This document shows positions 1 through 62,482 of a stretch of DNA of 64,000 nucleotides, in pieces. The notes below the pieces were generated by a model that saw only the letters and a program-made list of their open reading frames with translations, was not told where the DNA came from and made no database searches. How positions within the stretch are numbered: the first letter of the stretch is position 1; every line of letters begins with the position of its first letter. Source of the DNA: an uncultured Candidatus Saccharibacteria bacterium (GTDB lineage Bacteria; Patescibacteriota; Saccharimonadia; Saccharimonadales; CAYOYH01); the NCBI GenBank assembly GCA_964579475.1, contig CAZOFP010000001.1, positions 19,421 through 83,420 of the forward strand. The letters run 5' to 3'. The position numbers were made by a program, and so were the translations under genes.

Positions 1-81
1 AATTTTCTTTGCAATAGTTAACCCAGCGGCAACACCCGCTATAGAAAGCCCACCCAGTATTAGTATTTTCCTATTCTTCAT
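1..81 (-). CDS. 5' end of a gene running off the window; hydrophobic N-terminus (MKNRKILILGGLSIAGVAAGLTIAKKI), signal-peptide or TM-like
   Basis: Reverse-complement reading of bases 1-87 gives ATG ATG ATG AAG AAT AGG..., preceded by GGAGG. The rest of the gene lies outside the window. Confidence 0.3.
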   Translation of the reverse strand, partial: MKNRKILILGGLSIAGVAAGLTIAKKI

Positions 82-260
82 CATCCTCCACGATTACTCG
101 CCATATACTGTTTGACCTAATAGTAGAAACATTATATCGCCACCCAGTTATTATTGCAATAGTGCTGTGAATATGGTGTTTATGCACATGCAGCACTGTT
201 TGAACCTTGTATCGCGTGACTACATTGGGTAACATTTACCTAATAAATAAGGGGACTCAC

Positions 261-1769: not shown

Positions 1770-1775
1770 AAGATT

Positions 1776-2468
1776 CTAATCCTCTTGATGCGAGGCAATC
1801 TTCTTTGCCCTGTTTGAGAGTAGCGAAGCTACGCTTCCTGTTACAATTCCGAAAACTCCAAGTCCAAATATCATTAGGAATATGGCCACCCATCTTCCAG
1901 GGGTAGTGACAGGCGTTACATCACCGTAGCCGATAGTGGTGCCGGTGACCATTGCCCACCAGAAGCTATCAAAGTAAGTGTTCACATCTGGGTTAATGCC
2001 TTTTTCGGCTGAATAAAATAGTGCAGTGCTGATGAGTATAGTCGCCGACAGCGAAGTTGCGACTATCAGAGCGTAGGACCTGGGGATTAGTCGTCTGCTT
2101 ATCGTGACTAGTAGAGATATTCTGACTACAAAACGTGCAACAGCGAGGAAGTTAGCGACTGTCAGTGCCAGGCCATTACGGTCTTGTAGCCAATCAAGAG
2201 GTACTGCAGCGAGTAGTAGCCACCAGTGCTTTCTTATGAATGTGCTGCGATCGTTTGAGAGCCAGAACAAGCTCACAAACAGACCTAAGAAAAGAAAGGA
2301 AAGCAGGTTGTCTAGATTGGTGATTAATGCGGCTCTATCGCCCACTAGACTTAGGAATAGCAAGAAAAGTGTAAGTATGGCTATTAACGCCAGTAAAATG
2401 ACGCCAATTGCCTTGGTTATTGAAGGAAGATTAATTCGTTTGTACTCATGATGTCGTCGTTTGCGCAC
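1776..2468 (-). CDS. Potassium channel family protein (2TM/6TM-type pore with selectivity filter)
   Basis: Selectivity-filter motif TTIGYGD (VTGTTIGYGDVTP) plus several TM helices. Confidence 0.75.
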   Translation of the reverse strand: MRKRRHHEYKRINLPSITKAIGVILLALIAILTLFLLFLSLVGDRAALITNLDNLLSFLFLGLFVSLFWLSNDRSTFIRKHWWLLLAAVPLDWLQDRNGLALTVANFLAVARFVVRISLLVTISRRLIPRSYALIVATSLSATILISTALFYSAEKGINPDVNTYFDSFWWAMVTGTTIGYGDVTPVTTPGRWVAIFLMIFGLGVFGIVTGSVASLLSNRAKKIASHQED

Positions 2469-2584
2469 AATCGAAATTATATGCGAACACCCATAGAGTT
2501 ACCATAGCGAAAGCCAAGATGAGCTTGTTATTCATGTAGGTTTCTGTTCATAATAGTCTTTATAAATTAAGAGGAGGTCATTTT

Positions 2585-2905
2585 ATGGCTAAAATTGAAA
2601 ACAAGCGAGTTTCAGGTATATCAACAGCATCTATAGCAGTATTTGAAGGAGTATTTTTCGGTACACTTGGTATGATTGTTGCCATCTTAAGAGCTCTCGA
2701 AAACACTTTCCAGTATGCTGAGTCATCACAGAGCCTACTGAAAGGGTTGACTTTTGGTATAGCCAGCGGAGTGGTTCTCATCGTGTTGCTGCCAATAATT
2801 TGGTTTGCTATCGGCGCTTTAGTAGGTGCGATTCACGGGGTTATTTATAACTATGTATCGACACAAATGGGTGGGATTACGGTTCGTCTTACTGACGACA
2901 AATAA
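2585..2905 (+). CDS. Small integral membrane protein, hypothetical
   Basis: ORF with strong SD (AAGAGGAGG) 8 nt upstream. Two to three hydrophobic helices. Followed by an intrinsic terminator. Confidence 0.5.
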   Translation: MAKIENKRVSGISTASIAVFEGVFFGTLGMIVAILRALENTFQYAESSQSLLKGLTFGIASGVVLIVLLPIIWFAIGALVGAIHGVIYNYVSTQMGGITVRLTDDK

Positions 2906-2929
2906 TCTGGCTTATTGGTCATAAAAAAA

Positions 2930-2955
2930 GGAACGGAGCTAGTCCGTTCCTTTTT
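2930..2955. terminator. Intrinsic terminator hairpin (GGAACGGA-gctag-TCCGTTCC) flanked by an A-run and a T-run, potentially bidirectional
   Basis: Perfect 8-bp GC-containing stem followed by TTTTT, directly downstream of the 2585..2905 CDS. Confidence 0.6.
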
Positions 2956-3020
2956 GTCTAAGCAAGAAAATGGTATAGTAAGCATATTCAATAATTAATG
3001 GTGGGAATAGGAGTTCAAAT

Positions 3021-3557
3021 ATGAACGACACTATGCAAAAGTCTGGCTGGGCAGTCGGATTAGCAGGTTTGGCATCAATGACACTAGGAGTAGTGCTTTT
3101 GGTTTGGCCGGCACCAACACTTAACATCATGTTTACCGTGTTTGGTATATTTTCATTAATCTGGGGTATTATCCTCATAGTTGCTGCTATCGCCAATCGC
3201 GACGAAAGTGGCTTCTGGGCAATGCTTCTGCTGCTGGGCGTACTCAGCAGTTTATTTGGCTTGTTTCTACTTGGTGCCCCAGCATACGTAACAGGACTCA
3301 TCCTGTTACTTCTTATTGCTTTTCGTGCGCTAGTCATTGGTGCAATTGCACTGGTGCTTGGGATTCAGTCATTTAGTACCAAGTACAAGGAATGGTTCCT
3401 GCTGATATCTGGTATCGTTTCACTGCTGTTTGGGATGTACATCTTCGTGAACCCACAAGGTGGAGCTTTAGTTTCAGTACTAGCTATCTCAATCTACTTA
3501 ATAGTAGATGGTGGCTTCCTTCTTGCATCTGGTGTGTTTTCACACTCAAGCAAATAA
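3021..3557 (+). CDS. HdeD/DUF308-like multi-pass membrane protein
   Basis: About six short TM helices with repeated small-residue motifs typical of the DUF308/HdeD family. SD AGGAG upstream. Confidence 0.55.
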   Translation: MNDTMQKSGWAVGLAGLASMTLGVVLLVWPAPTLNIMFTVFGIFSLIWGIILIVAAIANRDESGFWAMLLLLGVLSSLFGLFLLGAPAYVTGLILLLLIAFRALVIGAIALVLGIQSFSTKYKEWFLLISGIVSLLFGMYIFVNPQGGALVSVLAISIYLIVDGGFLLASGVFSHSSK

Positions 3558-3583
3558 TTTCGATCTGCTCAGTCGAAATCAAA

Positions 3584-3614
3584 ATACACTCCCGCTCTGG
3601 GAGTGTATTTTATT
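3584..3614 (+). terminator. Intrinsic terminator (ATACACTCCC-gctct-GGGAGTGTAT then TTTATT)
   Basis: 10-bp perfect stem plus T-run just downstream of the 3021..3557 CDS. Confidence 0.6.
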
Positions 3615-3656
3615 CGTTGGAGTCGACATGGCTGTAGTATAATTAGTATCAAATAA

Positions 3657-4238
3657 TTGGATAAGCTAGTGCTTTTCGATATCGGCATAGGAATAATTAT
3701 TGGAATATTTTTTCACTCGACGAGTGATGTATTTACGCTTAGTACTTTTATCTCAATCAGCATAATGTTCTCTCTTTTGCCGGACATAGATTTCCCGATA
3801 CATTTCATGAGAGGCGGTACGTTTGAGGACGAGTACAAACACAGAAATCTACTTCACGTACCGCTACTACTCTGGCCTATTGGATCGCTCTTCTTGTATT
3901 TAGTTAGCCCAATACTGGTGCCAATGTTTCTCGTTGGCACGTTAATTCATTTTCTACATGACAGCATTGGTATTGGCTGGGGTATAAGGTGGCTGTATCC
4001 ATTCTCAAAAACGCACTATGCGTTTTTTTATCGCGTACGAACTGGTACCTTCACCGAGATTCCTAAACAACTGGTTTATGCTTGGACTCCAGAACAAGTG
4101 GATGAGTACGCTGAGGTGTATCATGACGAAGATTGGATTCGTAATATATATTTTAAGTGGCACCCCTACGCCATTGCAGAGGCTGCAGTATTCATTATCG
4201 CAATTCTTTATTTGATCAATTACAGTTCGGCTGGCTAG
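3657..4238 (+). CDS. Membrane-bound metal-dependent hydrolase-like protein (YdjM/DUF457-like), TTG start
   Basis: Polytopic membrane ORF with His-rich motifs (HFMRGG, HFLHDSIGIGWG). Family assignment is tentative. Confidence 0.45.
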   Translation: MDKLVLFDIGIGIIIGIFFHSTSDVFTLSTFISISIMFSLLPDIDFPIHFMRGGTFEDEYKHRNLLHVPLLLWPIGSLFLYLVSPILVPMFLVGTLIHFLHDSIGIGWGIRWLYPFSKTHYAFFYRVRTGTFTEIPKQLVYAWTPEQVDEYAEVYHDEDWIRNIYFKWHPYAIAEAAVFIIAILYLINYSSAG

Positions 4239-4786
4239 ATAGGTTCATCTTTAAGTTTAAGGAACCAGCCAATAACTGTGCTTATTGGATGCAACAACAA
4301 GCCCCAAATTATCGCCCAGGCGTACATGCTAACGGTGAAATCTGTGACTAACAAACTTAGCAATACAGCGCCGAGTATCCAGTCAATTTGGTCAAAAGGT
4401 GGCCAACTCTTACCCGGTTTTATATTTACCTGACGTTTGAAGAAACTCTCCAACGCATCACCACCTAGTGCACCAATAGTAAATATTAGCCCAAACAACC
4501 ATATGTTCACCGAACTATAATCGATGAATGAAAGCTCAAAGAAAAAGGTTGTATTTTGATAGAACCAAACTTGCAACGTCAGGACGATAAGAGCGCCAAA
4601 ATACCCTGCAATAAGACCCCTAAAAGTCTTGTGGTCGCCGAAGATTCGTTTATTGTTGAACGATTTACCGAAGTCCAGCGGTTTATCCAGCGGGTCAAGA
4701 AACTTAATCTTCTTAGCAAAAACTGGAAACATATTAGCTGTTCCAGCCGGCAGATAAAACCAAAGAGCGAACAAAATTTCGTTCAT
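4235..4786 (-). CDS. CDP-archaeol synthase-like protein (CarS / DUF46 family, CTP-transferase fold)
   Basis: Matches CarS hallmark blocks: N-terminal LPAGTAN...P.D.GK.F...R.FGD.KT.RG and C-terminal GD.LESFFKR...G...P.DQIDW; five TM segments. Confidence 0.7.
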   Translation of the reverse strand: MNEILFALWFYLPAGTANMFPVFAKKIKFLDPLDKPLDFGKSFNNKRIFGDHKTFRGLIAGYFGALIVLTLQVWFYQNTTFFFELSFIDYSSVNIWLFGLIFTIGALGGDALESFFKRQVNIKPGKSWPPFDQIDWILGAVLLSLLVTDFTVSMYAWAIIWGLLLHPISTVIGWFLKLKDEPI

Positions 4787-4826
4787 GTCTTCCTCATTTT
4801 ACTTGTGCTAATCATAGCATGTAAAT

Positions 4827-5369
4827 TTAGAGTTTGTACTCGACGACTTTACCATTTCGGATGACAGAAGTGAATGTTTCGAGTGTGGTTAAGTCGTTGA
4901 AATATCCTGCAAGAATTTGACCAGTGTTAGAATGGGCGACGATTAGTATTGAATCGCTTTTGTCATGCTTAACCTTCAAATCTTCTAGGAAGTCCGTGAC
5001 CCTTTGTTTGCTATCTAGGAGTGATTCACCGTCCCTGAATCTTTTTGAGTACCGGTCTTTTGTTAGGACGTAAGCTGCTGCTGCAAAGAACCAAGGTTTA
5101 CCGTTAAAGCCTGTCTTGTTATCGTTCAGTCTGGCATCGCTAGTAAGTTTTAGATTATGGTATTTGTTGATGATTTTTGCTGTCTCAATCGTTCGAGGCA
5201 ACGTCGATGTGTAGATGTGTGTCAAAGGAGTTTCTTTTAATTTCTCAGCAGCGGCTGCTGCCTGTCTTTTGCCTTTTTTGGTTAGTCTGACGTCAACACT
5301 TGGGTCGTCGTTCATGATGCCAAAGCGATTGTAAAATGTGTGCCCGTGGCGGACGAAGTAAATCCTCAT
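4827..5369 (-). CDS. Histidine phosphatase family protein (phosphoglycerate-mutase-like)
   Basis: N-terminal RHG motif (VRHGHTFYN) and a later His motif (VAHSNTG). 4-bp overlap with the upstream CDP-alcohol phosphatidyltransferase gene. Confidence 0.75.
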   Translation of the reverse strand: MRIYFVRHGHTFYNRFGIMNDDPSVDVRLTKKGKRQAAAAAEKLKETPLTHIYTSTLPRTIETAKIINKYHNLKLTSDARLNDNKTGFNGKPWFFAAAAYVLTKDRYSKRFRDGESLLDSKQRVTDFLEDLKVKHDKSDSILIVAHSNTGQILAGYFNDLTTLETFTSVIRNGKVVEYKL

Positions 5370-5989
5370 TCGTTTTTTGAAACCTTGGTTGAAATTGTGA
5401 GTAATCTATAGAACGCTGTCGCCCAAGAAAGTAGAGCGATTAACCAGATTACAGGTACAAGTAGATTGTTAAAAATGAGCCCGAAGACTAGAAGCGCTGT
5501 ACGCACCTCGTAGCGCATGAGTCCGGCTTGGAAGATGCGATTGATCTCCTGTGCATGGAGTGAGGAGCCCTTAAGGGCGGTCTCGCCTTTGGCTTTGATG
5601 TAACTTACGCTGTAGGCGCCTGTAATCGCTACAATTGTGGCCAGCACGGCCTTGGGGTTGTAGTCTAGTGCAAACCGATAAGCCAGCGCTGCAAAGACGA
5701 TACTTTCTTTCATGCGGTCTGTAGAAGCATCTAGAAGCATTCCGGCTTTACTGGCTCTACCCTGGACTCTTGCTAGCTCGCCGTCCAGACTATCCATTAG
5801 CCCAAATATCACCAATAAAATAGCACCAAGCAAGTATTGCTCGGCTACAATTGCAAAGAAAATTGGTACGTGTAGAACAAGAGAAGAAATAGTCACCTGG
5901 TTAGGAGTGATGGCACTATTTGAAATATTGTCTAACCACTTAGCGGCTAAGTGCATGCGAGATTTTGCAAATTTTCTTATACTATCCAT
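5366..5989 (-). CDS. CDP-alcohol phosphatidyltransferase (PgsA / archaetidyl-head-group synthase type)
   Basis: Exact CDP-OH-P-transferase motif D-G-x2-A-R-x8-G-x3-D-x3-D (DGELARVQGRASKAGMLLDASTD). The track ORF extends to 6133, but the Met at 5989 (MDSIRKF) avoids overlap with the divergent hydrolase gene. Confidence 0.8.
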   Translation of the reverse strand: MDSIRKFAKSRMHLAAKWLDNISNSAITPNQVTISSLVLHVPIFFAIVAEQYLLGAILLVIFGLMDSLDGELARVQGRASKAGMLLDASTDRMKESIVFAALAYRFALDYNPKAVLATIVAITGAYSVSYIKAKGETALKGSSLHAQEINRIFQAGLMRYEVRTALLVFGLIFNNLLVPVIWLIALLSWATAFYRLLTISTKVSKNE

Positions 5990-6047
5990 AACTTTAAAAC
6001 AGTATACTGGAAGCCAGAGATTCAGACTATTAAACTTTAGGGACAAC

Positions 6048-6977
6048 ATGCTCAAAATTCCAAAAAATGAACTTCTTCCGCTACGCATTGGGGGTATGAA
6101 CGGCAGATTATTAAAGATTGCAGCCAAGGACAATCAGGACGTTAACATATTGCTGGTTTATGGCGTTCATTCGTCAATGGAGCGTATGTATACGACCGCA
6201 AAATTTCACAGTCGATATGGGAGGGTTTGGATGCCTGATTTGCCTGGTTTTGGTGGTATGGATAGCTTTTACAAAATTGGTCGAGAACCTGACTTAGACA
6301 ACTACGCTGATTATCTATACACATTTATTCGAACATACAAACTAGACAAAAAGAAAATCCGTATCGTTGCTATGTCGTTCGGCTTTTTAGTCGTAACAAG
6401 AATGCTACAAAAATACCCACAACTCCATGACAATGTTGAGTTTGTTGTCAGCTTCGTTGGTTTTGGTAAAACTGAAGACTTCTCTGTCGATACATTCAAG
6501 AAACCAATTATTAAAATATCCCTCAGGCTAAGCAACACCAAGCTCGGCAGTTGGCTTATTGGCACACTACTATTTAATAAGGTTTCACTGAGAGTAATGT
6601 TTAAACTATTTCGTTTATTCAATCCAAACCCAAAGTATCGCCATGACTCCAAGCGCGAACAAGACCAAGCGGTTGAAATGGAGTTAGAGCTTTGGTCGAA
6701 CAACGATGCCAGAACAAAGTTTTACACCTACAAGGTTCTCTCTGATTTTGACCTTACGAAAGGTCAAAAGCCACTGCCACTAGATCTTTACGACATGGTT
6801 ACGCCAACAGATCAGTATTTTGACAGCGAATCAGTTAATAAGACCCTGTCGCAACTTTATCGTTCAAGTGAAATGTATATGGCTAATCTACGGCTTCACG
6901 CCCCAAGCGTTATTGGTGACGAAGAGGACGTAGCGAAAATCTATCCCGAAGCGATAAAGAAGATTTTAGCGAAGTGA
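6048..6977 (+). CDS. Alpha/beta-hydrolase fold protein (esterase/lipase-like)
   Basis: Only the distal part of track ORF 5712..6977 looks protein-like. The start is taken at ATG 6048 (MLKIPKNE). Nucleophile-elbow-like AMSFGFLV; length typical of alpha/beta hydrolases. Confidence 0.55.
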   Translation: MLKIPKNELLPLRIGGMNGRLLKIAAKDNQDVNILLVYGVHSSMERMYTTAKFHSRYGRVWMPDLPGFGGMDSFYKIGREPDLDNYADYLYTFIRTYKLDKKKIRIVAMSFGFLVVTRMLQKYPQLHDNVEFVVSFVGFGKTEDFSVDTFKKPIIKISLRLSNTKLGSWLIGTLLFNKVSLRVMFKLFRLFNPNPKYRHDSKREQDQAVEMELELWSNNDARTKFYTYKVLSDFDLTKGQKPLPLDLYDMVTPTDQYFDSESVNKTLSQLYRSSEMYMANLRLHAPSVIGDEEDVAKIYPEAIKKILAK

Positions 6978-6999
6978 CTTTGCTATACTTATTACCAAG

Positions 7000-8139
7000 A
7001 TGAAAATAGGTATAGTCTGTCCATACAATGTATTTAGACCCGGCGGTGTGCAGGAGGCTGTCTTTGCACATCAAAAAGAATTGATAGCACGTGGTTATGA
7101 AGTCACTATCATAACGCCAAACCCGAGACAAAATGACCGGCTTGCTCCAGAAGGTGTGCATTTAGTAGGCACTTCAACAGAACTCAATACTCCTTTTAGA
7201 ACCAAGGCGGACATCTCTTTGCATGCCGGCCCAAAAGAAATCTCCAAGTATCTTGAGGAGCAGAAATACGACCTACTTCACTTCCACGAACCCTGGGTGC
7301 CAATGCTTCCGAGACAAATTATCGACAAAGCCACCTGTCCGATAGTTGCAACTTTCCACGCCAAGCTTCCCGAAGCTTGGATATACAAAACTATTGGCAA
7401 AGCGGTTAAACCGTACACAAAGTCGTTCATTAAAGACATCGACTACATGGTTGCGGCATCAGAGCCAGCTGCGGATCATATTAACAGTCTGATAGATGGT
7501 AAGGTTCAGATAATCTACAATGGGGTCGACCTTACGAAGTATGATCCAGAGACGGTGCAGCCCCTCAAACAGTACATCGACGAAACGAAAACTATCCTTT
7601 TTATAAACCGACTAGAAAAGCGAAAAGGCCCAGATTGGATGCTAAAGGCCTACCGTCAGCTCGTGGAATCGCACGAAGACGTACGCCTGGTGATTGCTAG
7701 TGATGGCGACATGAGGAAAAGACTGGAATCGTATGTCAAAACATATGAGTTGCCAAATGTAGAGTTTCTTGGCTTTGTTGATGATGAAACGAAAGTTCGG
7801 TTGTACGCATCGGCAGACCTTTACTGCTCACCCGCCCCGTATGGCGAGGGCTTTGGCATAGTACTCCTCGAGGCCATGGCCATGCACACACCATATGTGG
7901 CTGGCGATAACGCCGGTTACAGGTTTGCAACTGGCGATAAATCTGACGAATATCTAGTTGACCCGACTAAACCTGCTCTGCTTGCAAAGCGTATTGAGAA
8001 ACTGCTCTACGATGAGGAAGCTAGAGTTGACTTCAAGAAATGGGCTAAAAAACGCGTACATACCTACGATTACAGAGTGGTGGTCGATGAGTATGAGACA
8101 ATATATAAAGATCTTATAAGGCGTGGGGACAAAAAATGA
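7000..8139 (+). CDS. Glycosyltransferase family 4 (PimA-like retaining GT)
   Basis: GT4 C-terminal signature EGFGIVLLEAMA and an N-terminal G-rich motif. Overlaps the next GT4 gene by 4 bp. Confidence 0.8.
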   Translation: MKIGIVCPYNVFRPGGVQEAVFAHQKELIARGYEVTIITPNPRQNDRLAPEGVHLVGTSTELNTPFRTKADISLHAGPKEISKYLEEQKYDLLHFHEPWVPMLPRQIIDKATCPIVATFHAKLPEAWIYKTIGKAVKPYTKSFIKDIDYMVAASEPAADHINSLIDGKVQIIYNGVDLTKYDPETVQPLKQYIDETKTILFINRLEKRKGPDWMLKAYRQLVESHEDVRLVIASDGDMRKRLESYVKTYELPNVEFLGFVDDETKVRLYASADLYCSPAPYGEGFGIVLLEAMAMHTPYVAGDNAGYRFATGDKSDEYLVDPTKPALLAKRIEKLLYDEEARVDFKKWAKKRVHTYDYRVVVDEYETIYKDLIRRGDKK

Positions 8140-33732: not shown

Positions 33733-33799
33733 GCTTTAACCTTGGTTATACGTACATCTCATCATATACATTGAAGATTTGCAAGCATAAGGCATTTGC

Positions 33800-33990
33800 G
33801 GGGTGGAGGGACTTGCCTGACCAGGCAAAAGAAACATACTTTTGCAACGGTCATCGAAAACATGCCTACTGGCATATTTGTCGACAAGGAGCCGGGGAAT
33901 GCCGACTGCCATTCCCGTTCAAGTCCCAGCTCCAGAAATAACAAAGACTCCCTCAGACGAGGAAGTCGTTATTATGGCAGCCTTTAGTGG
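33800..33990. repeat. Direct repeat copy A (~190 bp) beginning with a 16-nt copy of the tRNA-Trp 3' end (GGGGTGGAGGGACTTG on the plus strand)
   Basis: ~150 nt identical to 36445..36596 and then ~40 nt with a few mismatches. Contains several internal hairpins. Confidence 0.85.
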
Positions 33991-34033
33991 ACGCACTTCA
34001 TGATTTTCATATAAGCAAAATTGAGAACTAAAA

Positions 34034-34597
34034 TTATACTGTTTCAGTCACGAATTTATGAAAACTCTTAAAGGAGTTGGATTTATCTAAGGCCTTTTCA
34101 ATATTCAAATATTTCGCAAAGTCTTCATTATTCTTAGTCATAAAGTACTTTTCTTTTTGTGAACACTTGAACACTTGATCTTTAATTTTTCCTTTAGGGT
34201 CTTGGATGGTCTCTGGTAATCCAGAAAATTTAGGCATAAATTTTAGATTTAGAGACTTCTTGATACAGCCTGGATCACTGATAAACCAAGCCTCCAGTTC
34301 TTCAACTGGGATACAAATGTATCTGTTACCAAGCCTACTAGACGATAGAATACTCTCTAGCTCTGCCCTGACTCTGTCTTCACCGTTTGTCCCATCAAGG
34401 TCCTGCACAAGTATTAAAGCGCTGCAGCCTTGTGAGTGTAGAACATCAGCCCACATTAAACATTTCCGTTTGATATTGCCTTTTCCGTTTTTAGCGAACT
34501 CCCTGAAGCCTATACCGTTTTTATCAGATATTCTACGCACTAGAACTTCGATTGTGCTTGTGTCAGTCCTGTCTTCACCTATCAACCCAATGCGCAT
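34034..34597 (-). CDS. DUF4276/RloB-type Toprim-like small protein (partner of the adjacent ABC ATPase)
   Basis: N-terminal Toprim-like G-E-D (IGLIGEDRTD) and DxD (LVQDLDG), C-terminal EELEAW. Its ATG follows the upstream ATPase stop codon directly (no intergenic gap). Confidence 0.6.
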   Translation of the reverse strand: MRIGLIGEDRTDTSTIEVLVRRISDKNGIGFREFAKNGKGNIKRKCLMWADVLHSQGCSALILVQDLDGTNGEDRVRAELESILSSSRLGNRYICIPVEELEAWFISDPGCIKKSLNLKFMPKFSGLPETIQDPKGKIKDQVFKCSQKEKYFMTKNNEDFAKYLNIEKALDKSNSFKSFHKFVTETV

Positions 34598-34600
34598 TAC

Positions 34601-35809
34601 TTATTCGCTCCTAAAACCAGTTTCTCTCCAATAATCACCAAGGCTGCCTGTGTTCAAAAGGTATTCACGCAACGCGTTATGATCATTAGAATTTAGTTTC
34701 TTTTTCAATGAACTTGCACTAGTACCATTTGAGCCTTTACCAACTAACACAATTTGCTCGGGCTCAAGTTTATCTACTACATTATCGGAATGAGTGCTTA
34801 TTATCATTTGTTTTGTCTCTGCTTTCGATTCCACAAGCTCCATAACGCTGTTGATTAAACCGTGATGTACACCTATTTCGGGCTCTTCGATTAACAATAA
34901 TTCGTTGTTATTTCGAACTATATAGTAAACCAGTGCTAAAGTTTTTAAAGTTCCTTCAGAAAGCTGTGAAGGTGATAACTGTAGACCATCAATAGTAAAA
35001 GTGGGTATGACAATGTTGCGATCTATATCGATTTTTTCTATTCCGCCTCCTGGCTTCACCCTAATATTGCTATTGGGGACTGTGACATTTTGAAAATTAA
35101 TGTCTTCAATAAGCCCTATCCCTAGTGGGCCTACGGCGTTAATAAAAAGCTGGAACGACTTATCGTCACTCCTGCTCGAGTTATATATATCAAAAAGAAA
35201 TTTTCGATGTATGTTGGATTCTCCGTAACTTCTTGGAAGTTCACCATCTTCGATTTCTATTGATATTGGGCTGTCTGCAGGATTGGAGAAATGGGTTGCA
35301 CTGTAGTACCTAATACCAAAGAGGAATTCATTAAGCTTCGCTAAGAACTGGTTGATATCTTTTGAAGGAGTAAAGTACCTTTTCTTTAGACTTTCGGGGA
35401 TACTGTCATTCCCGAATTGTTGGATTACACTAAATGCTTGACTGCTGATCTCATGCCTCTTTTCATTAGTGCCCCCCATTTTCTTTACATGTAATTCTGA
35501 TACATCGATATCGTCCTGGTCGTATTGGTCAAAAAATATTTCTAGGAATAACCTATACGTATTGTCACCATCAGAAACGTCAGCTTCGATAAGTGATGAT
35601 GACAATGACTTAACTCCAGACCTCGGTGGACGTGCACGTCTATACCCTAGGCTGTAAATGCCTTTTTTGAGCAAGCCTATAGCAGCTAAAATATTAGTCT
35701 TTCCAGCACCGTTCCTCCCAATGAGAACTGTCGGATTTGTGCTAATTGCAAGTTTTGTGTCAATAAGAGATCTGTAGTTCTCGATTCTAATTTGAGTAAG
35801 CTTTAACAT
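34601..35809 (-). CDS. ABC-type/SMC-like ATPase of the AAA_21/OLD-AbiL-PARIS class
   Basis: Walker A GRNGAGKTN near the N-terminus; distal Walker B LLLIEEPE and H-loop (HH/STHS). Confidence 0.75.
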   Translation of the reverse strand: MLKLTQIRIENYRSLIDTKLAISTNPTVLIGRNGAGKTNILAAIGLLKKGIYSLGYRRARPPRSGVKSLSSSLIEADVSDGDNTYRLFLEIFFDQYDQDDIDVSELHVKKMGGTNEKRHEISSQAFSVIQQFGNDSIPESLKKRYFTPSKDINQFLAKLNEFLFGIRYYSATHFSNPADSPISIEIEDGELPRSYGESNIHRKFLFDIYNSSRSDDKSFQLFINAVGPLGIGLIEDINFQNVTVPNSNIRVKPGGGIEKIDIDRNIVIPTFTIDGLQLSPSQLSEGTLKTLALVYYIVRNNNELLLIEEPEIGVHHGLINSVMELVESKAETKQMIISTHSDNVVDKLEPEQIVLVGKGSNGTSASSLKKKLNSNDHNALREYLLNTGSLGDYWRETGFRSE

Positions 35810-36444
35810 ATGTATTCCTCTCTAATGCCTTAATGGTAACCTACGAAGATGCTTGACTCCAAACAGCAAGTTCATGGGATTTTCGAATTTGGAGCAAGAT
35901 AAAAACAAAGTTTTTGATGAAGAGAAGCCTTAACGTTAGTGCTTGTTGCATTCAATAAGTAGTGTATGATGCAATTAGCTTGAATTGTGAATGCACAATT
36001 CGTGTACTTATTAAGAGCTCCGCGCACCCAATGAGGTCCATTCGGATCAACAGATCGCTATAACAAGAGAGCCAGGCATTATAAATGAGCTAAACCATTT
36101 ATAGTGTCTTTTTTATTTCTATCTCTAGAAGTTAGGGGACCTATACAGGTTATCTACTAACTTAATGAGGTAGTTCGTAATGCTTGGAACTATTTGGGAT
36201 CTGGGATTATGTCGAAACCCGCGCCCTTTACGCCTCACTTTGATTCAAAATTGTTTCGCGGCCAGTCCAGAGAGAACTGATTTCATTGCTGGCGAGGCAA
36301 GGCATGTTTATGCGCAAGTGGCTGTGTATGTGATACTGCTACTGAGCATGAATATGTCTTAACGAAGTTAGAAATGAAAAAGCTTACGCAGGTGTCGCAA
36401 ACTTTGTTTGTGAGCAGTACGTAAGCTGTTCAGACTCTCTGGCA

Positions 36445-36619
36445 GGGGTGGAGGGACTTGCCTGACCAGGCAAAAGAAACATACTTTTGCAACGGTCATC
36501 GAAAACATGCCTACTGGCATATTTGTCGACAAGGAGCCGGGGAATGCCGACTGCCATTCCCGTTCAAGTCCCAGCTCCAGAAATAACAAAGACTCTCTCG
36601 AATGAGAAAGTCGTTGTTA
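36445..36619. repeat. Direct repeat copy B, immediately abutting tRNA-Trp
   Basis: Same unit as 33800..33990. Ends with TGGCAG, which supplies the discriminator and CCA complement of the tRNA. Confidence 0.85.
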
Positions 36620-36696
36620 TGGCAGGGGTGGAGGGACTTGAACCCGCGACCTTCGGTTTTGGAGACCGACGCTCTAGCCAGCTGAGCTACACCCCT
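36620..36696 (-). tRNA. trnW: tRNA-Trp (anticodon CCA), CCA encoded
   Basis: Cloverleaf by hand-folding: acceptor AGGGGTG/CACCCCT, D-arm GCTC...GAGC, anticodon stem TCGGT/ACCGA with loop CTCCAAA, T-loop TTCAAGT. One C-U mismatch in the T-stem. Confidence 0.8.
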
Positions 36697-36890
36697 ATGC
36701 TTGGTTGATTATAACTGAAATGTTCAAATCTGGGACTCTCCCACCGATATTTCCCCTGACGGAGAAATTCGTCGGGCCCACCTCGCGGTCTTCGCCTTTC
36801 ACTTTCGCTCAAACTCAGGCAACGCTCCGGTCTTGCGAACCTACAAAAGTGAAACAGTTCACTTTTGCTTTACGGTTCTCACCCGAGAAC

Positions 36891-57456: not shown

Positions 57457-58026
57457 TTACTTCCTTTCCTTTTCAAACGGCATTCCCATGCTTGCAAGAA
57501 GCGCATACGCGTGGTCTCTATTATTCGTTGTGGTCACTATAGTCACTTGCAGCCCATGTAAGGTTGCAACGTCGTTATAATCTAGCTCAGGAAATACAGA
57601 TTGTTCGACAAACCCAATACTGTAATTGCCGCTTTTATCAAAAGCCTTTGGCGATACACCATGGAAATCTCTAACTCTCGGTATTACGATATTTATCATT
57701 CGATCTAGAAATTCGTACATTTTTGCACCGCGCAGGGTTACTTTCATGCCGATTCTCTGTCCCTCGCGAAGTTTAAAGTTGGCAATCGATTTCTTGGCAA
57801 CAGTGAAAACAGGTTTTTGACCAGTAATTTTAGTCAGCGTGCCCTCGGCTATCTCGAATGCTCGTTTGTCTTCTTTACTGCGTCCAAGACCAACGTTGAC
57901 GATAACTTTTTCAATACCAGGAACCTGATGGATGTTATCAAGTTTCAGCTCTTTTTTTAGCTCACTTCGAAGCTTCGAGTCGTACTCTTGCTTCAGTTTT
58001 GGCTTGTTAGCAGTTGCAGTAGCCAT
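57457..58026 (-). CDS. rplE: 50S ribosomal protein L5
   Basis: Typical L5; canonical position. Confidence 0.95.
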
Positions 58027-58157
58027 TACTTCATCTCCTTACCTTCGGCATGAGACAAACCTACGGTTTTTCTCATCGCGCTTTCTGAACTAAATTCAAA
58101 TTCACTTTGTGAAACAGCGCTGCTCTTTTCCCTTGGGATTATATTGAGCGAAAACAT
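58026..58157 (-). CDS. Conserved 43-aa microprotein ORF inserted between rplX and rplE (paralog of 62049..62180)
   Basis: Not in the ORF track. Encodes MFSLNIIPREKSSAVSQSEFEFSSESAMRKTVGLSHAEGKEMK. AAGGAG SD 8 nt upstream. Start overlaps the rplX stop as TAATG and stop overlaps the rplE start as TAATG. The canonical rplX-rplE junction is normally tight. Confidence 0.5.
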   Translation of the reverse strand: MFSLNIIPREKSSAVSQSEFEFSSESAMRKTVGLSHAEGKEMK

Positions 58158-58480
58158 TACTTTATCTCCTTGTTGGAATCTTGTCGCATTACTCGAACTT
58201 TCTTATCTTTTTTAGTCTCGTAGCCCACTCGGCTGGCTTTCTTCTTGTCAGACCCACGCACCACGCCGACCTTCGAATACTTTATCGGCTGTGAATCTTT
58301 GATAACTCCACCTTGTGGGTAGGCGGCAGATGGCTTCTGATGGATAGTTCGTACATTCAAACCCTCGATCAGTACTGTCATATTCTTGGGGTCAGTCGAA
58401 GTAACTTTACCAGTTTTACCCTTCTCGCTACCACTTCTGATCATTACGGTGTCACCTTTTTTAATCTTCATTCCACTCAT
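58157..58480 (-). CDS. rplX: 50S ribosomal protein L24
   Basis: KOW motif (IKKGDTVMIRSGSEKGKTGKV). Confidence 0.95.
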   Translation of the reverse strand: MSGMKIKKGDTVMIRSGSEKGKTGKVTSTDPKNMTVLIEGLNVRTIHQKPSAAYPQGGVIKDSQPIKYSKVGVVRGSDKKKASRVGYETKKDKKVRVMRQDSNKEIK

Positions 58481-58482
58481 AA

Positions 58483-58851
58483 CTATAGTACCTCCGGAGC
58501 TAAGCTAACAATCTTCATGTAACCCTTTTCACGGAGTTCTCTGGGCACAGGGCCAAAGATTCGAGTTCCACGCGGAAGTTTAGCCTCATCAATAATTACT
58601 GCAGCGTTGTCGTCAAACTTAATAGTCGAGCCGTCTTTTCGCTGGATTGTATCGCGAGTTCTAACAACTACCGCCTGGACAACTTGTTTCTTCTTAACCG
58701 TTCCATTAGGTGTTGCAGCTTTAACTGTCGCAGTGATGATGTCACCGACACGAGCGTAGCGTCTACCGCTACCACCAAGAACACGGATACAAAGTATCTC
58801 TCTTGCACCGCTATTGTCTGTAACTCGTAATCGACTTTCTTGCTGTATCAT
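58483..58851 (-). CDS. rplN: 50S ribosomal protein L14
   Basis: [17 protein letters not shown], typical L14. Confidence 0.95.
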
Positions 58852-58854
58852 CCT

Positions 58855-59100
58855 CTATCCTTGCGCCTTCTTGACCACCTTAGTTAGCACCCAAGTCTTG
58901 TTCTTACTTATCGGCTTTGTTTCCTCGATCTCTACAACATCGCCAACGTGAGCTTCATTCTTTTCATCATGAGCATGGAACTTACGACTAGTTTTGTATC
59001 GTTTCTTATATATTGGGTGCATTTTGGAACCAGAAACCAGGACGACGATTGTCTTGTCCTGAGCGTCTGACGTTACTGTTGCTACAATTGTTTTCTTCAT
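58855..59100 (-). CDS. rpsQ: 30S ribosomal protein S17
   Basis: OB-fold S17 sequence. Confidence 0.9.
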   Translation of the reverse strand: MKKTIVATVTSDAQDKTIVVLVSGSKMHPIYKKRYKTSRKFHAHDEKNEAHVGDVVEIEETKPISKNKTWVLTKVVKKAQG

Positions 59101-59318
59101 GATTTCTCTTCCTTCATCTCGTTAGTCTCTTTGGTCCCACTCTCTCGCATTAGCGTTTCTACTCGTGCTATGTCTTTACGAACTTTGCGTATTTGTGAGT
59201 TTTCTTTCACGTCGTTCACCAGCAAATCTTTACGCAGTCCAGCTAGCTTATTTCGTAGCTTCTGGGATTCTTTAGCCAAATCTGCACTGTTTTTCTTTCG
59301 CATCACATCGAGCTTCAT
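59097..59318 (-). CDS. rpmC: 50S ribosomal protein L29
   Basis: Coiled small protein with the L29 pattern; canonical position. Confidence 0.85.
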   Translation of the reverse strand: MKLDVMRKKNSADLAKESQKLRNKLAGLRKDLLVNDVKENSQIRKVRKDIARVETLMRESGTKETNEMKEEKS

Positions 59319-59321
59319 GGC

Positions 59322-59732
59322 TTAGGCACCCCTCTTCACGAACTTAGTTCGCACAGGCAACTTATGAGCAGCCAACCTTAGGGCTTCACGTGCCTGCCCT
59401 TCAGTAACGTCATCCATCTCAAACAGAATTGTTCCTGGTTTTACTTTGGCTACAAAGAATTCAGGGTTGCCCTTACCAGAACCCATCTTTACATCTTGAG
59501 GTTTTCTAGTAACAGGAGTATGTGGGAAGATACGAATCCAGATACGGCCACCACGTTTTATGTAACGGGTCATCGCCTGCCTAGATGCCTCTATCTGACG
59601 GGAAGTAATTCTCTCGGCGTCCATAGACTTCAAACCATAGTTCCCAAAGGTAAGCGTAGCGCCGCGAGTTGCGACACCTTTGTTCTTGCCTTTGCGTACT
59701 TTTCGGTACTTGGTTTTATTTGGCATCAACAT
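59322..59732 (-). CDS. rplP: 50S ribosomal protein L16
   Basis: [11 protein letters not shown]..., typical L16. Confidence 0.95.
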
Positions 59733-59733
59733 A

Positions 59734-60363
59734 CTAAAGCGCCTCTCCCTTGTGTATCCAAACCTTCACGCCGATAGTACCAGCGCCCGTCTTGGCCGTT
59801 GCTAGCGCGTAGTCAATATCAGCTCGCAGGGTATGCAGTGGGACCGAACCTTGAATCTCTTTTTCACGACGGCTCATATCGGAACCATTAAGCCGTCCAG
59901 CAACTTCGACGCGGACGCCTTTAGCACCAGCACGCATAGTTGCAGCGGCGGTTGATTTTACGGCTCGGCGGAAATTAATTCGTCTCTCCAGCTGGTAGGC
60001 GATGTTTTCAGCCACAATCTTAGCTGAAAGTTCGGCTTTCTTTACTTCCTCGATGTTGAGTCGAACTGTACCTGGGATAATTTTCGAAACTTCATTTTTA
60101 AGTTCGGTTACTCCTGCACCCCCACGACCAATAACCACACCCGCTTTACCGGTGTGAATCGTGATATTTACGAGGTTTGGTGAACGCTCAATGTCCACCT
60201 TGCTAATTGACGCTCGCCCCTGGTATTTGTTCTGAATAAGTCGGCGCACTTCAAGATCTTGTGTCAAAAACTCGGTGTAGTCCTTTTTGGATGCGAACCA
60301 CTTAGAACGCCAGTCTTTGTTGACTGCTAGTCTCATGCTAATTGGATTAACTTTCTGACCCAT
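59734..60363 (-). CDS. rpsC: 30S ribosomal protein S3
   Basis: KH domain and S3 C-domain. Confidence 0.95.
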
Positions 60364-60929
60364 TATCTGTCGCCCCTTCTTCCTGTTCGTTGTTTAGTAA
60401 TCGGTACATCTTTCTTCTTGCCTATGTTTCTTATGAAGCCGCGTTTCTTCTGTGCTTGCTCATCTTGCATGGTATCGGTTGTCTTTTCTGACTTGTCGGG
60501 CGCTTTTTTGGTAGTTTTTGGCTTCTCATCAGTTTTCTTAGCAACTGCAGGTTTTTTAGCATCAGACTTTTTAGCAGATGATTTCTTTTTGGGCTTTTCT
60601 TTGCCCTCTACTACAACTCGAATATTTGTCGAGCGCTTTAGGTAGGGCTGAGCACGCCCATGAGCCGCTGGTCGGTACCGCTTCAGTGAAGTAGCTTGCC
60701 CGATGTCCAGTTCGACTATCTGCAGGTCTTTGCCGTCCATATTATGATTGTTCATCGCATTTGCCTTAGCACTTTCGATAGTTTTTCTCAGAGGTTCGGC
60801 TGCTCGTTTCGGTGTGTGCGCCAAAATCACTATGGCATCCGCAACACTTCGTCCGCGCACTAAAGACGCCACTAAACCAATCTTTCGTGGTGTTTGACGT
60901 ACTGCTCTTGAGGTTGCGGTTACTTGCAT
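60363..60929 (-). CDS. rplV: 50S ribosomal protein L22 with ~75-aa K-rich C-terminal extension
   Basis: L22 core in the N-terminal 110 aa; long lysine-rich tail. Confidence 0.9.
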   Translation of the reverse strand: MQVTATSRAVRQTPRKIGLVASLVRGRSVADAIVILAHTPKRAAEPLRKTIESAKANAMNNHNMDGKDLQIVELDIGQATSLKRYRPAAHGRAQPYLKRSTNIRVVVEGKEKPKKKSSAKKSDAKKPAVAKKTDEKPKTTKKAPDKSEKTTDTMQDEQAQKKRGFIRNIGKKKDVPITKQRTGRRGDR

Positions 60930-60932
60930 GAC

Positions 60933-61211
60933 TTAGAACCCTGTTCCTTTAGCTAACTTACCGCCGTGCGCTCTGAACTTCCTCGTTGGTGAAAACTCAC
61001 CAAGCTTGTGGCCTACCATGTTCTCAGAAATAAACACTGGTACGTGAACTTTACCGTTATGAACGGCGATAGTCTTACCAACCATATCTGGTGAAATAGT
61101 ACTGTGGCGTGCCCAAGTCTTGATGACCGTTCGATCGTCACTCGAAAGAGCGTTAATCTTGTCAGCAAGTTTAGGGTCTATAAATGGTCCTTTTTTTAGA
61201 CTTCTGCTCAT
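60933..61211 (-). CDS. rpsS: 30S ribosomal protein S19
   Basis: [12 protein letters not shown]..., typical S19. Confidence 0.95.
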
Positions 61212-61212
61212 A

Positions 61213-62049
61213 CTATCTCCTCTTAGCCTCTTGGCGCTTCTTTACAATATATTTGTCAGTATCTTTACGTCGACGCGTCTTGTAGCCAAGTGTAGGCACT
61301 CCCCAAGGAGTTTTCGGTGTTCGTCCGACACCATGCGCACCGCCATCACCACCACCGTGTGGGTGATCCGCTGCATTCATAGCTTTGCCGCGAACACTTG
61401 GTCTAAAGCCTTGTTTACGTCGTCTACCAGCCTTACCAATCTTCACGTTCTGGTGCTGTTCGTTACCGACGACACCGACAGTTGCCTGACATTTCAGGTT
61501 GACCATTCGAACTTCGCCGCTTGGCAACCTTATCTGTGCGTAACCGTTGTCTTTAGCCATCAGTTGTGCCGATGCGCCTGCGCTTCGCACCATTTGTCCG
61601 CCTTTACCGACGTTTAGCTCTATATTATAAATCGAGCTGCCCTCAGGGATGAGTTCTAGGGTTAGTCGGTTGCCTTGCTCAATAGGACTTTTGTGTCCGC
61701 TTTCAATCTTTTGGCCGACTTTCATACCATTTCCAGCGATAACGTAGTGTAGTGTGCCGTCTTGGTCCTTAATTCGTGCAATCCTGGCAGAGCGGTTTGG
61801 GTCATACTCGATAGCCTCAATTGTTGCAATCGTTCCAGGTGCAAGACCAAAATCAACCACACGGTAGAACTTCTTGGCACCAGTACCGCGGTGACGAACG
61901 GTAATTCGACCACGGTTGTTTCTTCCAGCTTTCGATTTGTTGACACGTAGCAGGGAACGCACAGGTTTTTTCGCAGTAATCATCGAATTATCCTGCGAAG
62001 TCATTCCACGGCGTCCAGGTGTAGTTGGCTTGTAAGCTTTAACAGCCAT
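61213..62049 (-). CDS. rplB: 50S ribosomal protein L2
   Basis: Typical L2 ([20 protein letters not shown]). Confidence 0.95.
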
Positions 62050-62180
62050 TACTTATTCACCTTTCCAGGAGTATGAGACAAACCTACGGTTTTTCTCATC
62101 GCACCTTCTGCAGTAAATCCAGATTCACTTCGTGAACCGGTGCTGCTCTTTTCCCTCAGTAAGGAGTTGGAATATACCAT
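62049..62180 (-). CDS. Conserved 43-aa microprotein ORF inserted between rplW and rplB (paralog of 58026..58157)
   Basis: Not in the ORF track. Encodes MVYSNSLLREKSSTGSRSESGFTAEGAMRKTVGLSHTPGKVNK. TAATG overlap with the rplW stop and with the rplB start. 22/43 residues identical to the other copy, including REKSS and AMRKTVGLSH. Confidence 0.5.
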   Translation of the reverse strand: MVYSNSLLREKSSTGSRSESGFTAEGAMRKTVGLSHTPGKVNK

Positions 62181-62482
62181 TACTTGCTCTCCTCAAAGAC
62201 GGGAATGTTATCACCCTCTTTAATCGTTACATAGGCCCGCTTAGTATCTTTTCTGAAGCCATCAATCGGCGCCACGCGTTTTTGCACAGAGCTCTTTTTC
62301 TTGCCCTTGTTCACAGAAATTCGTACGCCAGTCACTGTCACGTCGAACTGTTCTTCAACAGCTTCTCTCACAGTCATCTTGGTAGCCGTCATCGGCACCA
62401 CGAAGACATAGGTATTGTTCTCAGACAGCAGGAAGCTCTTTTCGCTAATCTTCGGAATCAGTGGCATGTGGGTTGCGTCCAT
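62180..62482 (-). CDS. rplW: 50S ribosomal protein L23
   Basis: L23 core (KISEKS...VF.V...A.K..V..AVE..F.V.V..V). Start chosen at the ATG forming TAATG with the rplD stop. Confidence 0.9.
   Translation of the reverse strand: MDATHMPLIPKISEKSFLLSENNTYVFVVPMTATKMTVREAVEEQFDVTVTGVRISVNKGKKKSSVQKRVAPIDGFRKDTKRAYVTIKEGDNIPVFEESK

Follow-up and report, generated by a model that had tools for sequence, protein, structure and literature searches.

Two 43-codon open reading frames in a Saccharibacteria S10/spc operon are probably coupling relays through resident copies of a structured interspersed element

Small structured repeats dispersed through bacterial genomes are known from several groups. The REP/BIME, ERIC and Neisseria Correia (NEMIS) elements are multi-copy, transcribed and hairpin-forming, lie at gene boundaries and can affect mRNA processing and stability. 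The Rickettsia palindromic elements (RPEs) are structured repeats of ~100–150 nt in the reduced genomes of host-dependent bacteria, which are tolerated in expressed and stable-RNA genes by staying open for translation and for which no transposase is known. In the present paper we describe an element that shares these traits and is closest in kind to these repeats, two copies of which lie in a 64,000 nt stretch of DNA from an uncultured Candidatus Saccharibacteria bacterium (contig CAZOFP010000001.1, positions 19421–83420; this whole stretch is referred to as the window). Each copy is part of a 132-nt insert at a junction of the S10/spc-type ribosomal protein (r-protein) operon and is traversed by a 43-codon open reading frame (ORF). 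We consider it about three in four probable that the inserts are resident copies of a structured interspersed element and that the ORFs are relays that pass ribosomes across it.

The element differs from REP, ERIC, Correia and RPE repeats in five respects, namely the lack of inverted termini, the variable target duplication, the phylum-wide invariance, the preference for tRNA leaders and coupled junctions, and the purifying selection on resident copies. The RPEs, moreover, are usually fused in-frame inside proteins, whereas the Saccharibacteria copies form separate, doubly coupled mini-ORFs or stand in RNA leaders, and this element has a hairpin invariant across the phylum and is under purifying selection in its resident copies. 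Compared with REP/BIME, ERIC and Correia elements, there is neither a fixed TA or short target duplication nor a cognate REP-associated tyrosine transposase (RAYT) gene or insertion sequence (IS) element near the copies, and the favoured places are tRNA 5′ leaders and coupled junctions, not 3′ untranslated regions (UTRs). Intervening sequences of 23S rRNA lie in its helices and are excised by RNase III. Some copies resemble 23S intervening sequences, including the short rRNA inserts of Saccharibacteria (PMC11270868), in lying inside 23S as extended stem-loops (loci L079, L084, L024 and others; L-numbers label the Saccharibacteria loci that were compared), but the family is not rRNA-specific and most copies lie elsewhere. 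The nearest report to the element is the finding that 64 of 66 Saccharibacteria rRNA inserts are short, uncharacterized and not introns (PMC11270868); we found no description of the element in the library of papers that was searched, either by topic or by literal sequence.

The operon is encoded on the minus strand of the window in the order L3, L4, L23, insert B, L2, S19, L22, S3, L16, L29, S17, L14, L24, insert A, L5, S14, S8, L6, L18, S5, L15 and SecY. A previous reading of the letters alone (the sequence-only reading) had described two paralogous 43-codon ORFs in the inserts, and they lie exactly where it placed them, at 58026–58157 between L24 and L5 (insert A) and at 62049–62180 between L23 and L2 (insert B), both on the minus strand. 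The TAATG overlaps that it described are likewise present at both ends of each ORF, the ATG overlapping the stop of L24 or L23 and the TAA overlapping the ATG of L5 or L2 (in insert A, ATG at 58157–58155 and TAA at 58028–58026). The two inserts are 83% identical over 113 nt and, as had been noticed, have in common a 30-nt block that matches nowhere else in the window, even with three mismatches allowed (0 matches expected by chance). The hairpin proposed in front of the downstream start was also borne out, with 6 + 5 bp flanking an A·G mismatch and its end 23 nt upstream of the ATG. The residues shared by the two peptides are real, but they number 25/43 and not 22/43. Junctions of this operon are normally a few nucleotides wide, as the same reading assumed: unoccupied ones measure −4 to +8 nt in ten other Saccharibacteria S10/spc operons, and the inserts are therefore real additions. 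Sequencing error, which had been thought an unlikely source, is excluded, as relatives carry the same inserts and so does an independent assembly, L119 (99.8% identical). Neither insert is terminator-like or promoter-like. In the same operon of the window, there is no L30 gene at the S5|L15 junction (~55283), and L22 (60363–60929, minus strand) carries a C-terminal extension of ~80 residues rich in lysine, alanine and proline; both observations fit a Patescibacteria-type ribosome.

On sequence grounds, both inserts are copies of a Saccharibacteria-wide interspersed element of ~72–85 nt. The exact 28-mer GATGAGAAAAACCGTAGGTTTGTCTCAT was found in at least 118 stretches of a collection of species-representative genomes, and among the matches listed nearly all carriers were Saccharibacteria metagenome-assembled genomes, several of them with multiple copies. 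Alignment of the flanks gave the order of the parts: the 5′ box, (A)GGGAAAAGAGCAG, is single-stranded and is followed by a variable region (P1) and then by a hairpin that is nearly invariant (P2; AUGAGA-A-AAACC/GUA/GGUUU-G-UCUCAU, with an A·G mismatch). The box is invariant in 11/11 class B copies and nearly so in 80 class A copies. The closing helix of P1 holds one hairpin in class A, the majority, and two hairpins, as a three-way junction, in class B and class C; both window copies belong to class B. The core of copy A extends over 58050–58132 (covariance-model score 62.2 bits, E ~1e-14), with the purine-rich box GGGAAAAGAGCAG at 58120–58132, P1 at 58078–58119 (closing helix CGCU/AGCG, hairpins UUCAC-AAA-GUGAA and UUGAA-UUUAG-UUCAG, with compensatory changes in 13/17 variable pairs) and P2, GAUGAGAAAAACC-GUA-GGUUUGUCUCAU with the A·G mismatch, at 58050–58077, the last being the exact 28-mer, of which rare variants are compensatory. 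The core of copy B extends over 62073–62155 (61.1 bits), with the box at 62143–62155, P1 at 62101–62142 (closing helix CACC/GGUG) and P2 at 62073–62100; all of these parts are on the minus strand. In both inserts the downstream Shine–Dalgarno (SD) sequence lies outside P2.

A scan of the window with the covariance model returned only the two known copies (E ~1e-14), i.e. a density of 2 per 64 kb. In the compared loci the model added ~15 further variant copies, and a metagenome scan for non-canonical hairpins added at least 120 more. No Rfam family was found on the element in the window (E up to 10) or in 17 loci (E up to 1), and the covariance models of self-cleaving ribozymes, riboswitches and other Rfam families gave no match on it. 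The element was also absent from viral contigs (IMG/VR).

The sequence-only reading had offered an RNA-level structure that regulates rplE and rplB as one alternative. The structure stands, and its covariation is strong; the regulation of rplE/rplB was not supported. Between the two window copies, a 5-bp helix differs by two compensatory changes (GCGCU/AGCGC compared with GCACC/GGUGC). In an alignment of 11 class B sequences, 97.7% of cells pair and 13 pairs are altered on both sides, values that 0/500 shuffles reached and for which slid controls gave 0–2; compensatory base-pair changes thus exceed those of the controls, and class A (80 sequences) covaries likewise. One G·U pair is kept in 9/11 class B copies and would be C·A on the opposite strand, and folding is thereby fixed to the strand that has the orientation of the operon. 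Variants of P2 are compensatory in the lower stem (UUGAGA/UCUCAA, ACGAGA/UCUC(C)GU and AUGAGG/CCUCAU) and show over a dozen kinds of upper stem, with loops of 3–5 nt, and the A·G mismatch is usually kept. Sequence comparison thus shows that the family exists, that it folds on the operon-co-oriented strand and that copies of it have arisen at many sites, both in single genomes and across genomes.

The insert at L23|L2 offers a view of how a resident copy evolves, as it is present in the window and in the relatives L121 and L122, and the homology of the fillers marks it as orthologous in the three. In comparisons of the window with the two relatives, 47–52% of third codon positions in L2, L23 and L4 differ, as do 35–50% of positions in the insert fillers, compared with 0/13 differences in the 5′ box, 0/28 in P2 and 3–5/42 in P1. 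Box and P2 together therefore show 0/41 changes, while the adjoining translated filler has diverged by about 50%, and the nucleic acid is accordingly under purifying selection in place. Between the window and L120 the element is 87% identical and the flanking r-protein genes ~72%. Gene conversion is an unlikely cause of the conservation, because each site keeps its own P1. The pattern argues for some cellular reader of box and hairpin, and the element may be kept because a conserved cellular factor reads these parts, RNA processing, RNA stability and protein binding in strongly expressed transcripts being examples of its possible role.

In 31 of 120 copies (~36 if tRNAs missed by ARAGORN are included) the element ends 3–11 nt before a sense tRNA, 12 specificities being represented; only three or four copies in tRNA leaders are antisense, a sense:antisense ratio of ~10:1. 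The rRNA sites comprise the 16S–23S spacer, a position 14 nt before 5S, three different sites inside 23S and an antisense copy 5 nt past the 3′ end of 23S. Coupled junctions that carry the element are S12|S7, L3|L4, L23|L2, S19|L22, S3|L16, L29|S17, S17|L14, L5|S14 and atpD|atpC; the contexts of S6–SSB, tsf and rplK are also enriched, and further copies lie in 5′ UTRs and beside unrelated genes. Orientation matches local transcription in 69 of 107 copies (P = 0.0035), with junction copies 21:0 in the sense direction, and GC skew is positive for 57 of 107, which is not significant. The test of synteny suggested with the sequence-only reading had a mixed outcome: homologous ORFs were present at L23|L2 (in two relatives) but not at L24|L5, and further ones were present at L5|S14 and atpD|atpC, and so the element is not tied to particular r-proteins. 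At L23|L2, class A copies occupy the junction in L009 and L091, and it is empty in L038 and L059; the L24|L5 junction is empty in L009, L044, L072, L089 and L120 and occupied in the window genome only.

Several features of the flanks were observed along with these sites. A promoter-like motif, TAnAAT followed by (N)CCYCTGTT, lies 20–40 nt upstream of the element in tRNA leaders (L002, L008, L015, L019, L043, L107 and L117), and the same motif stands reverse-complemented beside the antisense copies L013, L036, L056 and L118. The copies of L092, L102, L103, L048 and L104 adjoin one conserved sequence, ...CAGTTGCGGCACAGTTC...GATT..., with ...CTCCTGCTCGGGAG... on the other side; it is in the opposite orientation in L104, matches no Rfam family at threshold and could be a gene for a divergent structured RNA into which the element has inserted repeatedly. 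For a recurrent flanking sequence, CAGTTGCGGCACAG..., an attempted identification gave no match. In the copies inside 23S (L079, 1651–1770; L084, ~1040–1112 and 1562–1634) complementarity to the purine-rich box is found immediately 5′ of the element, e.g. UCUUUUCC with GGAAAAGA, and such pairing would give a long extended stem, the box being unpaired in other contexts.

The history of the two inserts can be followed in their flanks. In the relative L120, the empty L24|L5 site reads AAGGAGATTAAGTAATG once, whereas in the window this 17-nt module stands on both sides of insert A: upstream as AAGGAGATAAAGTAATG (58155–58171), comprising the SD sequence, the L24 stop and the relay ORF start, and downstream as AAGGAGATGAAGTAATG (58024–58040), comprising the SD sequence, the relay ORF stop and the L5 start, with 16/17 identity between the two. 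L5|S14 provides the reciprocal case: the window has no insert at this junction, whereas L120 carries a copy there with a 16/17 duplication, and this copy is of the same P1 subfamily as the one that the window has at L24|L5. Comparison of these filled and empty sites shows that insertion in the window came with duplication of a 17-nt SD–stop–start module. At insert B the corresponding modules, GAGGAGAGCAAGTAATG upstream (62178–62194, with the SD sequence, the L23 stop and the relay ORF start) and AAGGTGAATAAGTAATG downstream (62047–62063), are identical at 12/17 positions, which suggests an older insertion; all four modules are on the minus strand. Elsewhere, exact flank duplications of an adjacent gene end, 11–49 nt in length, accompany 12 of 116 copies, the control maximum being 9. 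With duplications of 5 nt or fewer, of 17 nt and of up to 49 nt, the target duplication is evidently of variable length, and in these gene-dense genomes the duplications that survive restore the gene end or junction that the insertion had interrupted. Copies of one genome have P1 stems in common and their similarity ends at the core edges, which indicates copying within genomes, and the presence or absence of dispersed copies differs between genomes, as it does for miniature inverted-repeat transposable elements (MITEs). The element would spread by a copy-and-paste route that leaves target duplications of 5 nt or fewer to 49 nt, although this step is less certain.

Two further observations concern sites of this kind. 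In L063, the 3′ end of an AlaX-like gene is exactly duplicated downstream of the element (49 nt). In L018, the duplicated AlaX-like end shows only synonymous differences from the functional copy, including a TCT to AGC serine switch, a pattern for which the best explanation is that recombination reaching as far as the element later replaced the allele of the gene. A large serine recombinase found in four loci was considered as a partner and rejected, since it proved to be an integrase located at the 3′ end of the tRNA, and what looked like an overlap with the element is a read-through ORF on the antisense strand. The recombinase genes (L043, L082, L053 and L077) are convergent with, and abut the 3′ ends of, tRNA genes that have element-bearing leaders, and these loci are probably integrative elements at tRNA sites.

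At coupled junctions, the element was accompanied by an open frame in every copy examined. In 21/21 junction copies an ORF runs through the core, its start overlapping or abutting the upstream stop and its stop overlapping or abutting the downstream start. The core is stop-poor by nature, with two of its three frames free of stops, and 91 of 102 non-junction copies have one open frame or more. When the flanks are included, a frame is open across core and flanks in all 21 junction copies compared with 51 of 102 elsewhere (P = 3.6e-6), which indicates that the open, doubly coupled frame, and not the peptide, is required or selected at junctions. From the two stop-free frames of the core and from the junction module on both sides we infer a relay in which ribosomes that finish L24 or L23 would restart at the overlapping ATG, translate through the element, melting its structure on the way, terminate at TAATG and begin again on L5 or L2. 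The 43-codon ORFs would accordingly be coupling relays, with the peptide as a by-product. They resemble known relay or spacer ORFs of translational coupling in that start and stop overlap the neighbours and the peptide sequence is irrelevant, but differ in that the ORF is here created by, and runs through, an inserted structured repeat, repeatedly and at different junctions and genomes.

A number of points weigh against this reading of the inserts as resident copies of an interspersed element crossed by relays. About one-third of the copies near protein genes are antisense, and a purely RNA-level function leaves these unexplained. The core has no terminal inverted repeats, as GGGAAAAGAG... at one end is not the inverted copy of ...GUCUCAU at the other, and the target duplication is neither uniform nor of the fixed length seen in MITEs, one insertion in 23S having a repeat of at most 3–5 nt. 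When ORFs within 3 kb of 120 copies were clustered, no transposase, reverse transcriptase or other partner gene recurred. Finally, the main sample was gathered by means of the exact 28-mer, and the invariance of the hairpin is thus partly a matter of ascertainment, a bias that is eased by the covariance-model search, the metagenome search and the comparison of orthologues.

Of the rival explanations, the one that survives best makes host function primary and mobility secondary: the element would be a host-functional RNA module, cis-acting or released as an abundant small RNA by tRNA and rRNA processing, which a conserved Saccharibacteria protein or nuclease binds, marking transcripts of the translation apparatus for processing, stabilization or co-regulation. 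We regard this as possible but would not favour it. Resident copies are constrained like first and second codon positions of r-proteins, the sense bias in tRNA leaders and operons is strong, and copies are enriched in tRNA, rRNA, r-protein, atp, S6–SSB, tsf and rplK contexts. However, site occupancy differs between related genomes, antisense copies exist, none of the four tRNAs of the window carries the element, and no partner protein was identified.

Consistent with the same explanation, box and hairpin co-vary by lineage, much as a recognition code would. Among ~190 copies the two change jointly by subfamily, a pattern that comprises only about four independent events. Subfamily I (~102 copies) combines the box GGGAAAAGAG with the hairpin GAGA-A-AAACC/GGUUU-G-UCUC; subfamily II (~75 copies) the box GGGAAGAG with GAGA-A-ACCC../..GGGU-G-UCUC; subfamily III (10 copies) the box GGGGAGAG with GAGAGGGG/CCCCUCUC; and subfamily IV (3–4 copies) the box CGGAAGAG with GAGAAACC/GGGUUUCUC, while in the single copy of L070 both box and hairpin have A7. 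The A-runs of box and hairpin thus measure 4/4, 2/2, 1/0 and 7/7 by lineage, and such matching run lengths are unlikely to be due to chance. A base-by-base code in the form of a mirror repeat (purine triplex) was rejected, as GGG of the box is constant in subfamily II although the distal upper stem varies there. Pairing of the box with the 3′ strand of the hairpin in an alternative helix was also rejected: such a helix is 8–9 kcal/mol worse than the two-hairpin fold, and its cognate and swapped scores fail to tell subfamilies I and II apart. What is left to explain this co-variation is a shared reader, which could be a protein or a tertiary contact. A bolder proposal, which we put forward only as speculation and rate somewhat lower than the rival just described, is that the element is an undescribed functional RNA module in which box and hairpin form one recognition unit (through a tertiary contact or one protein) that co-evolves by lineage; it would tag the most abundant transcripts (tRNA, rRNA, r-protein and ATP synthase operons) and co-ordinate their processing or expression, and would spread independently of a transposase, possibly by an RNA- or replication-template-switch-mediated route, duplicating its target.

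It is improbable that the conserved sequence is instead a signal at the DNA level, i.e. an uptake or recombination sequence maintained through gene conversion or biased uptake. The natural competence of Saccharibacteria (PMC10187176) would suit such a signal, as would the conservation of resident copies without evident host function, the 11-5/6-11 inverted-repeat layout of the hairpin and the lineage-specific subfamilies, which by analogy resemble the dialects of uptake sequences. An uptake sequence is a short motif that occurs about once per kb independently of orientation, whereas the present unit is far longer than known uptake sequences, occurs at only 2 copies per 64 kb and is biased in orientation with transcription; the variable stem, compensatory changes and strand-specific G·U pairs point, moreover, to a folded single strand. 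A Xer/dif-like site, to which the 11-5/6-11 layout is also suited, was set aside on strand-specific structure, covariation and orientation bias.

Marginally less probable again is a non-autonomous derivative of a single-strand DNA transposon, either of the IS200/IS605 type or a REP mobilized by a RAYT transposase. The asymmetric hairpin with its conserved mismatch and GTAG-containing loop would fit such an origin, as would the dispersed copies without inverted ends, but the family in question does not make target duplications, which are present here, and has an orientation tied to the replication strand. The copies are single and not inverted pairs, and their orientation does not follow GC skew (57/107). 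No Y1/HUH transposase gene was found near 120 copies, nor was a RAYT (Y1 transposase) gene, which REP systems have as a single copy flanked by the repeats, seen among the neighbours.

The conserved, translated 43-aa ribosome-associated microprotein in two paralogues, with which the sequence-only reading began, is very unlikely and already largely refuted. In its favour, the ORFs are open, tightly coupled and provided with SD sites, they were predicted by gene callers, and the protein database contains five small ORFs like them, but the changes between the inserts are not those of a conserved peptide. Differences at codon positions 1, 2 and 3 number 9, 12 and 12, with no third-position bias, and changed codons comprise 18 nonsynonymous and two synonymous ones, with no sign of purifying selection on the amino acid sequence; together with the compensatory helix changes, this is the signature of selection on structure and not on a peptide. 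The most conserved block is, furthermore, read in two frames: among 21 junction copies from many genomes the near-invariant hairpin is translated as RDEKNRRFVS in 13 and as AMRKTVGLSH in seven, and homologues thus do not keep the same reading frame. Between the orthologous L23|L2 copies, both the N-terminal and the C-terminal portion of the ORF have diverged at a neutral rate. A profile search with both peptides matched only seven tiny database ORFs, none with a Pfam domain, and the same DNA is untranslated in tRNA leaders, rRNA and antisense contexts. Equally unlikely is an autoregulatory r-protein leader, in which a mimic of an rRNA site bound by an r-protein (e.g. S8, L5 or L2) would control translation of rplE and rplB: in E. 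coli, S8 acts at the rplX–rplE region of the spc operon, and the structure lies directly upstream of the rplE and rplB starts much as such leader RNAs do, but the element is not gene-specific or confined to the operon of a regulating protein, occurring 3–11 nt before many tRNAs, before 5S, inside 23S, at many junctions and beside unrelated genes, sometimes antisense; it occupies L24|L5 in the window genome only and matches no Rfam r-protein leader.

Other features were seen in the compared operons and in the window. In L044 (~1–8000) an unrelated repeat of ~115 nt, ATGAGTAAAATGCTACAGCATTTTAGGAGTGAGGAG...CGCGACTGAAAGGAGC, lies in at least six junctions (S3|L16, L16|L29, S17|L14, S14|S8, L6|L18 and L18|S5), and in L072 another unrelated family with a (CAACGAT)n tail lies at S3|L16 and S14|S8. 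The S8|L6 junctions of L044 and L089 hold short hydrophobic ORFs, MKSALLQIPFTIVGLSLAALLGYVINVMYKKVRKNK and MDFGILALGVPELIILGTPVAVIAVIVLIKVKKKENR, which may be genuine small membrane peptides encoded in the spc operon. The window also contains, at 33795–36700, a 2.6-kb island with an AAA_21/AAA_15 ATPase (34601–35809, minus strand) and a DUF4276 protein (34034–34597, minus strand), flanked by 181-nt direct repeats (33800–33980 and 36445–36625, 97% identical) that begin with a partial copy of the tRNA-Trp 3′ end (tRNA-Trp, 36620–36696, minus strand); the island resembles a small cassette of the defence type, integrated at the tRNA.

These results remove a false lead, as the inserts are not new ribosome-associated microproteins, and repeat-generated relay ORFs are to be expected when small ORFs of Patescibacteria are annotated. 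They also show how a compact coupled operon absorbs an insertion, by duplication of the SD–stop–start module with the frame kept open, and the element may explain many of the short uncharacterized rRNA inserts of Saccharibacteria. The hosts have tiny genomes with almost no spare DNA, yet they carry an apparently undescribed, phylum-wide, very highly conserved structured element in the leaders and junctions of the translation machinery itself, and as its resident copies are maintained by selection, something in the cell would appear to read them. Cultivated, genetically tractable Saccharibacteria exist, and the question is directly testable in them.

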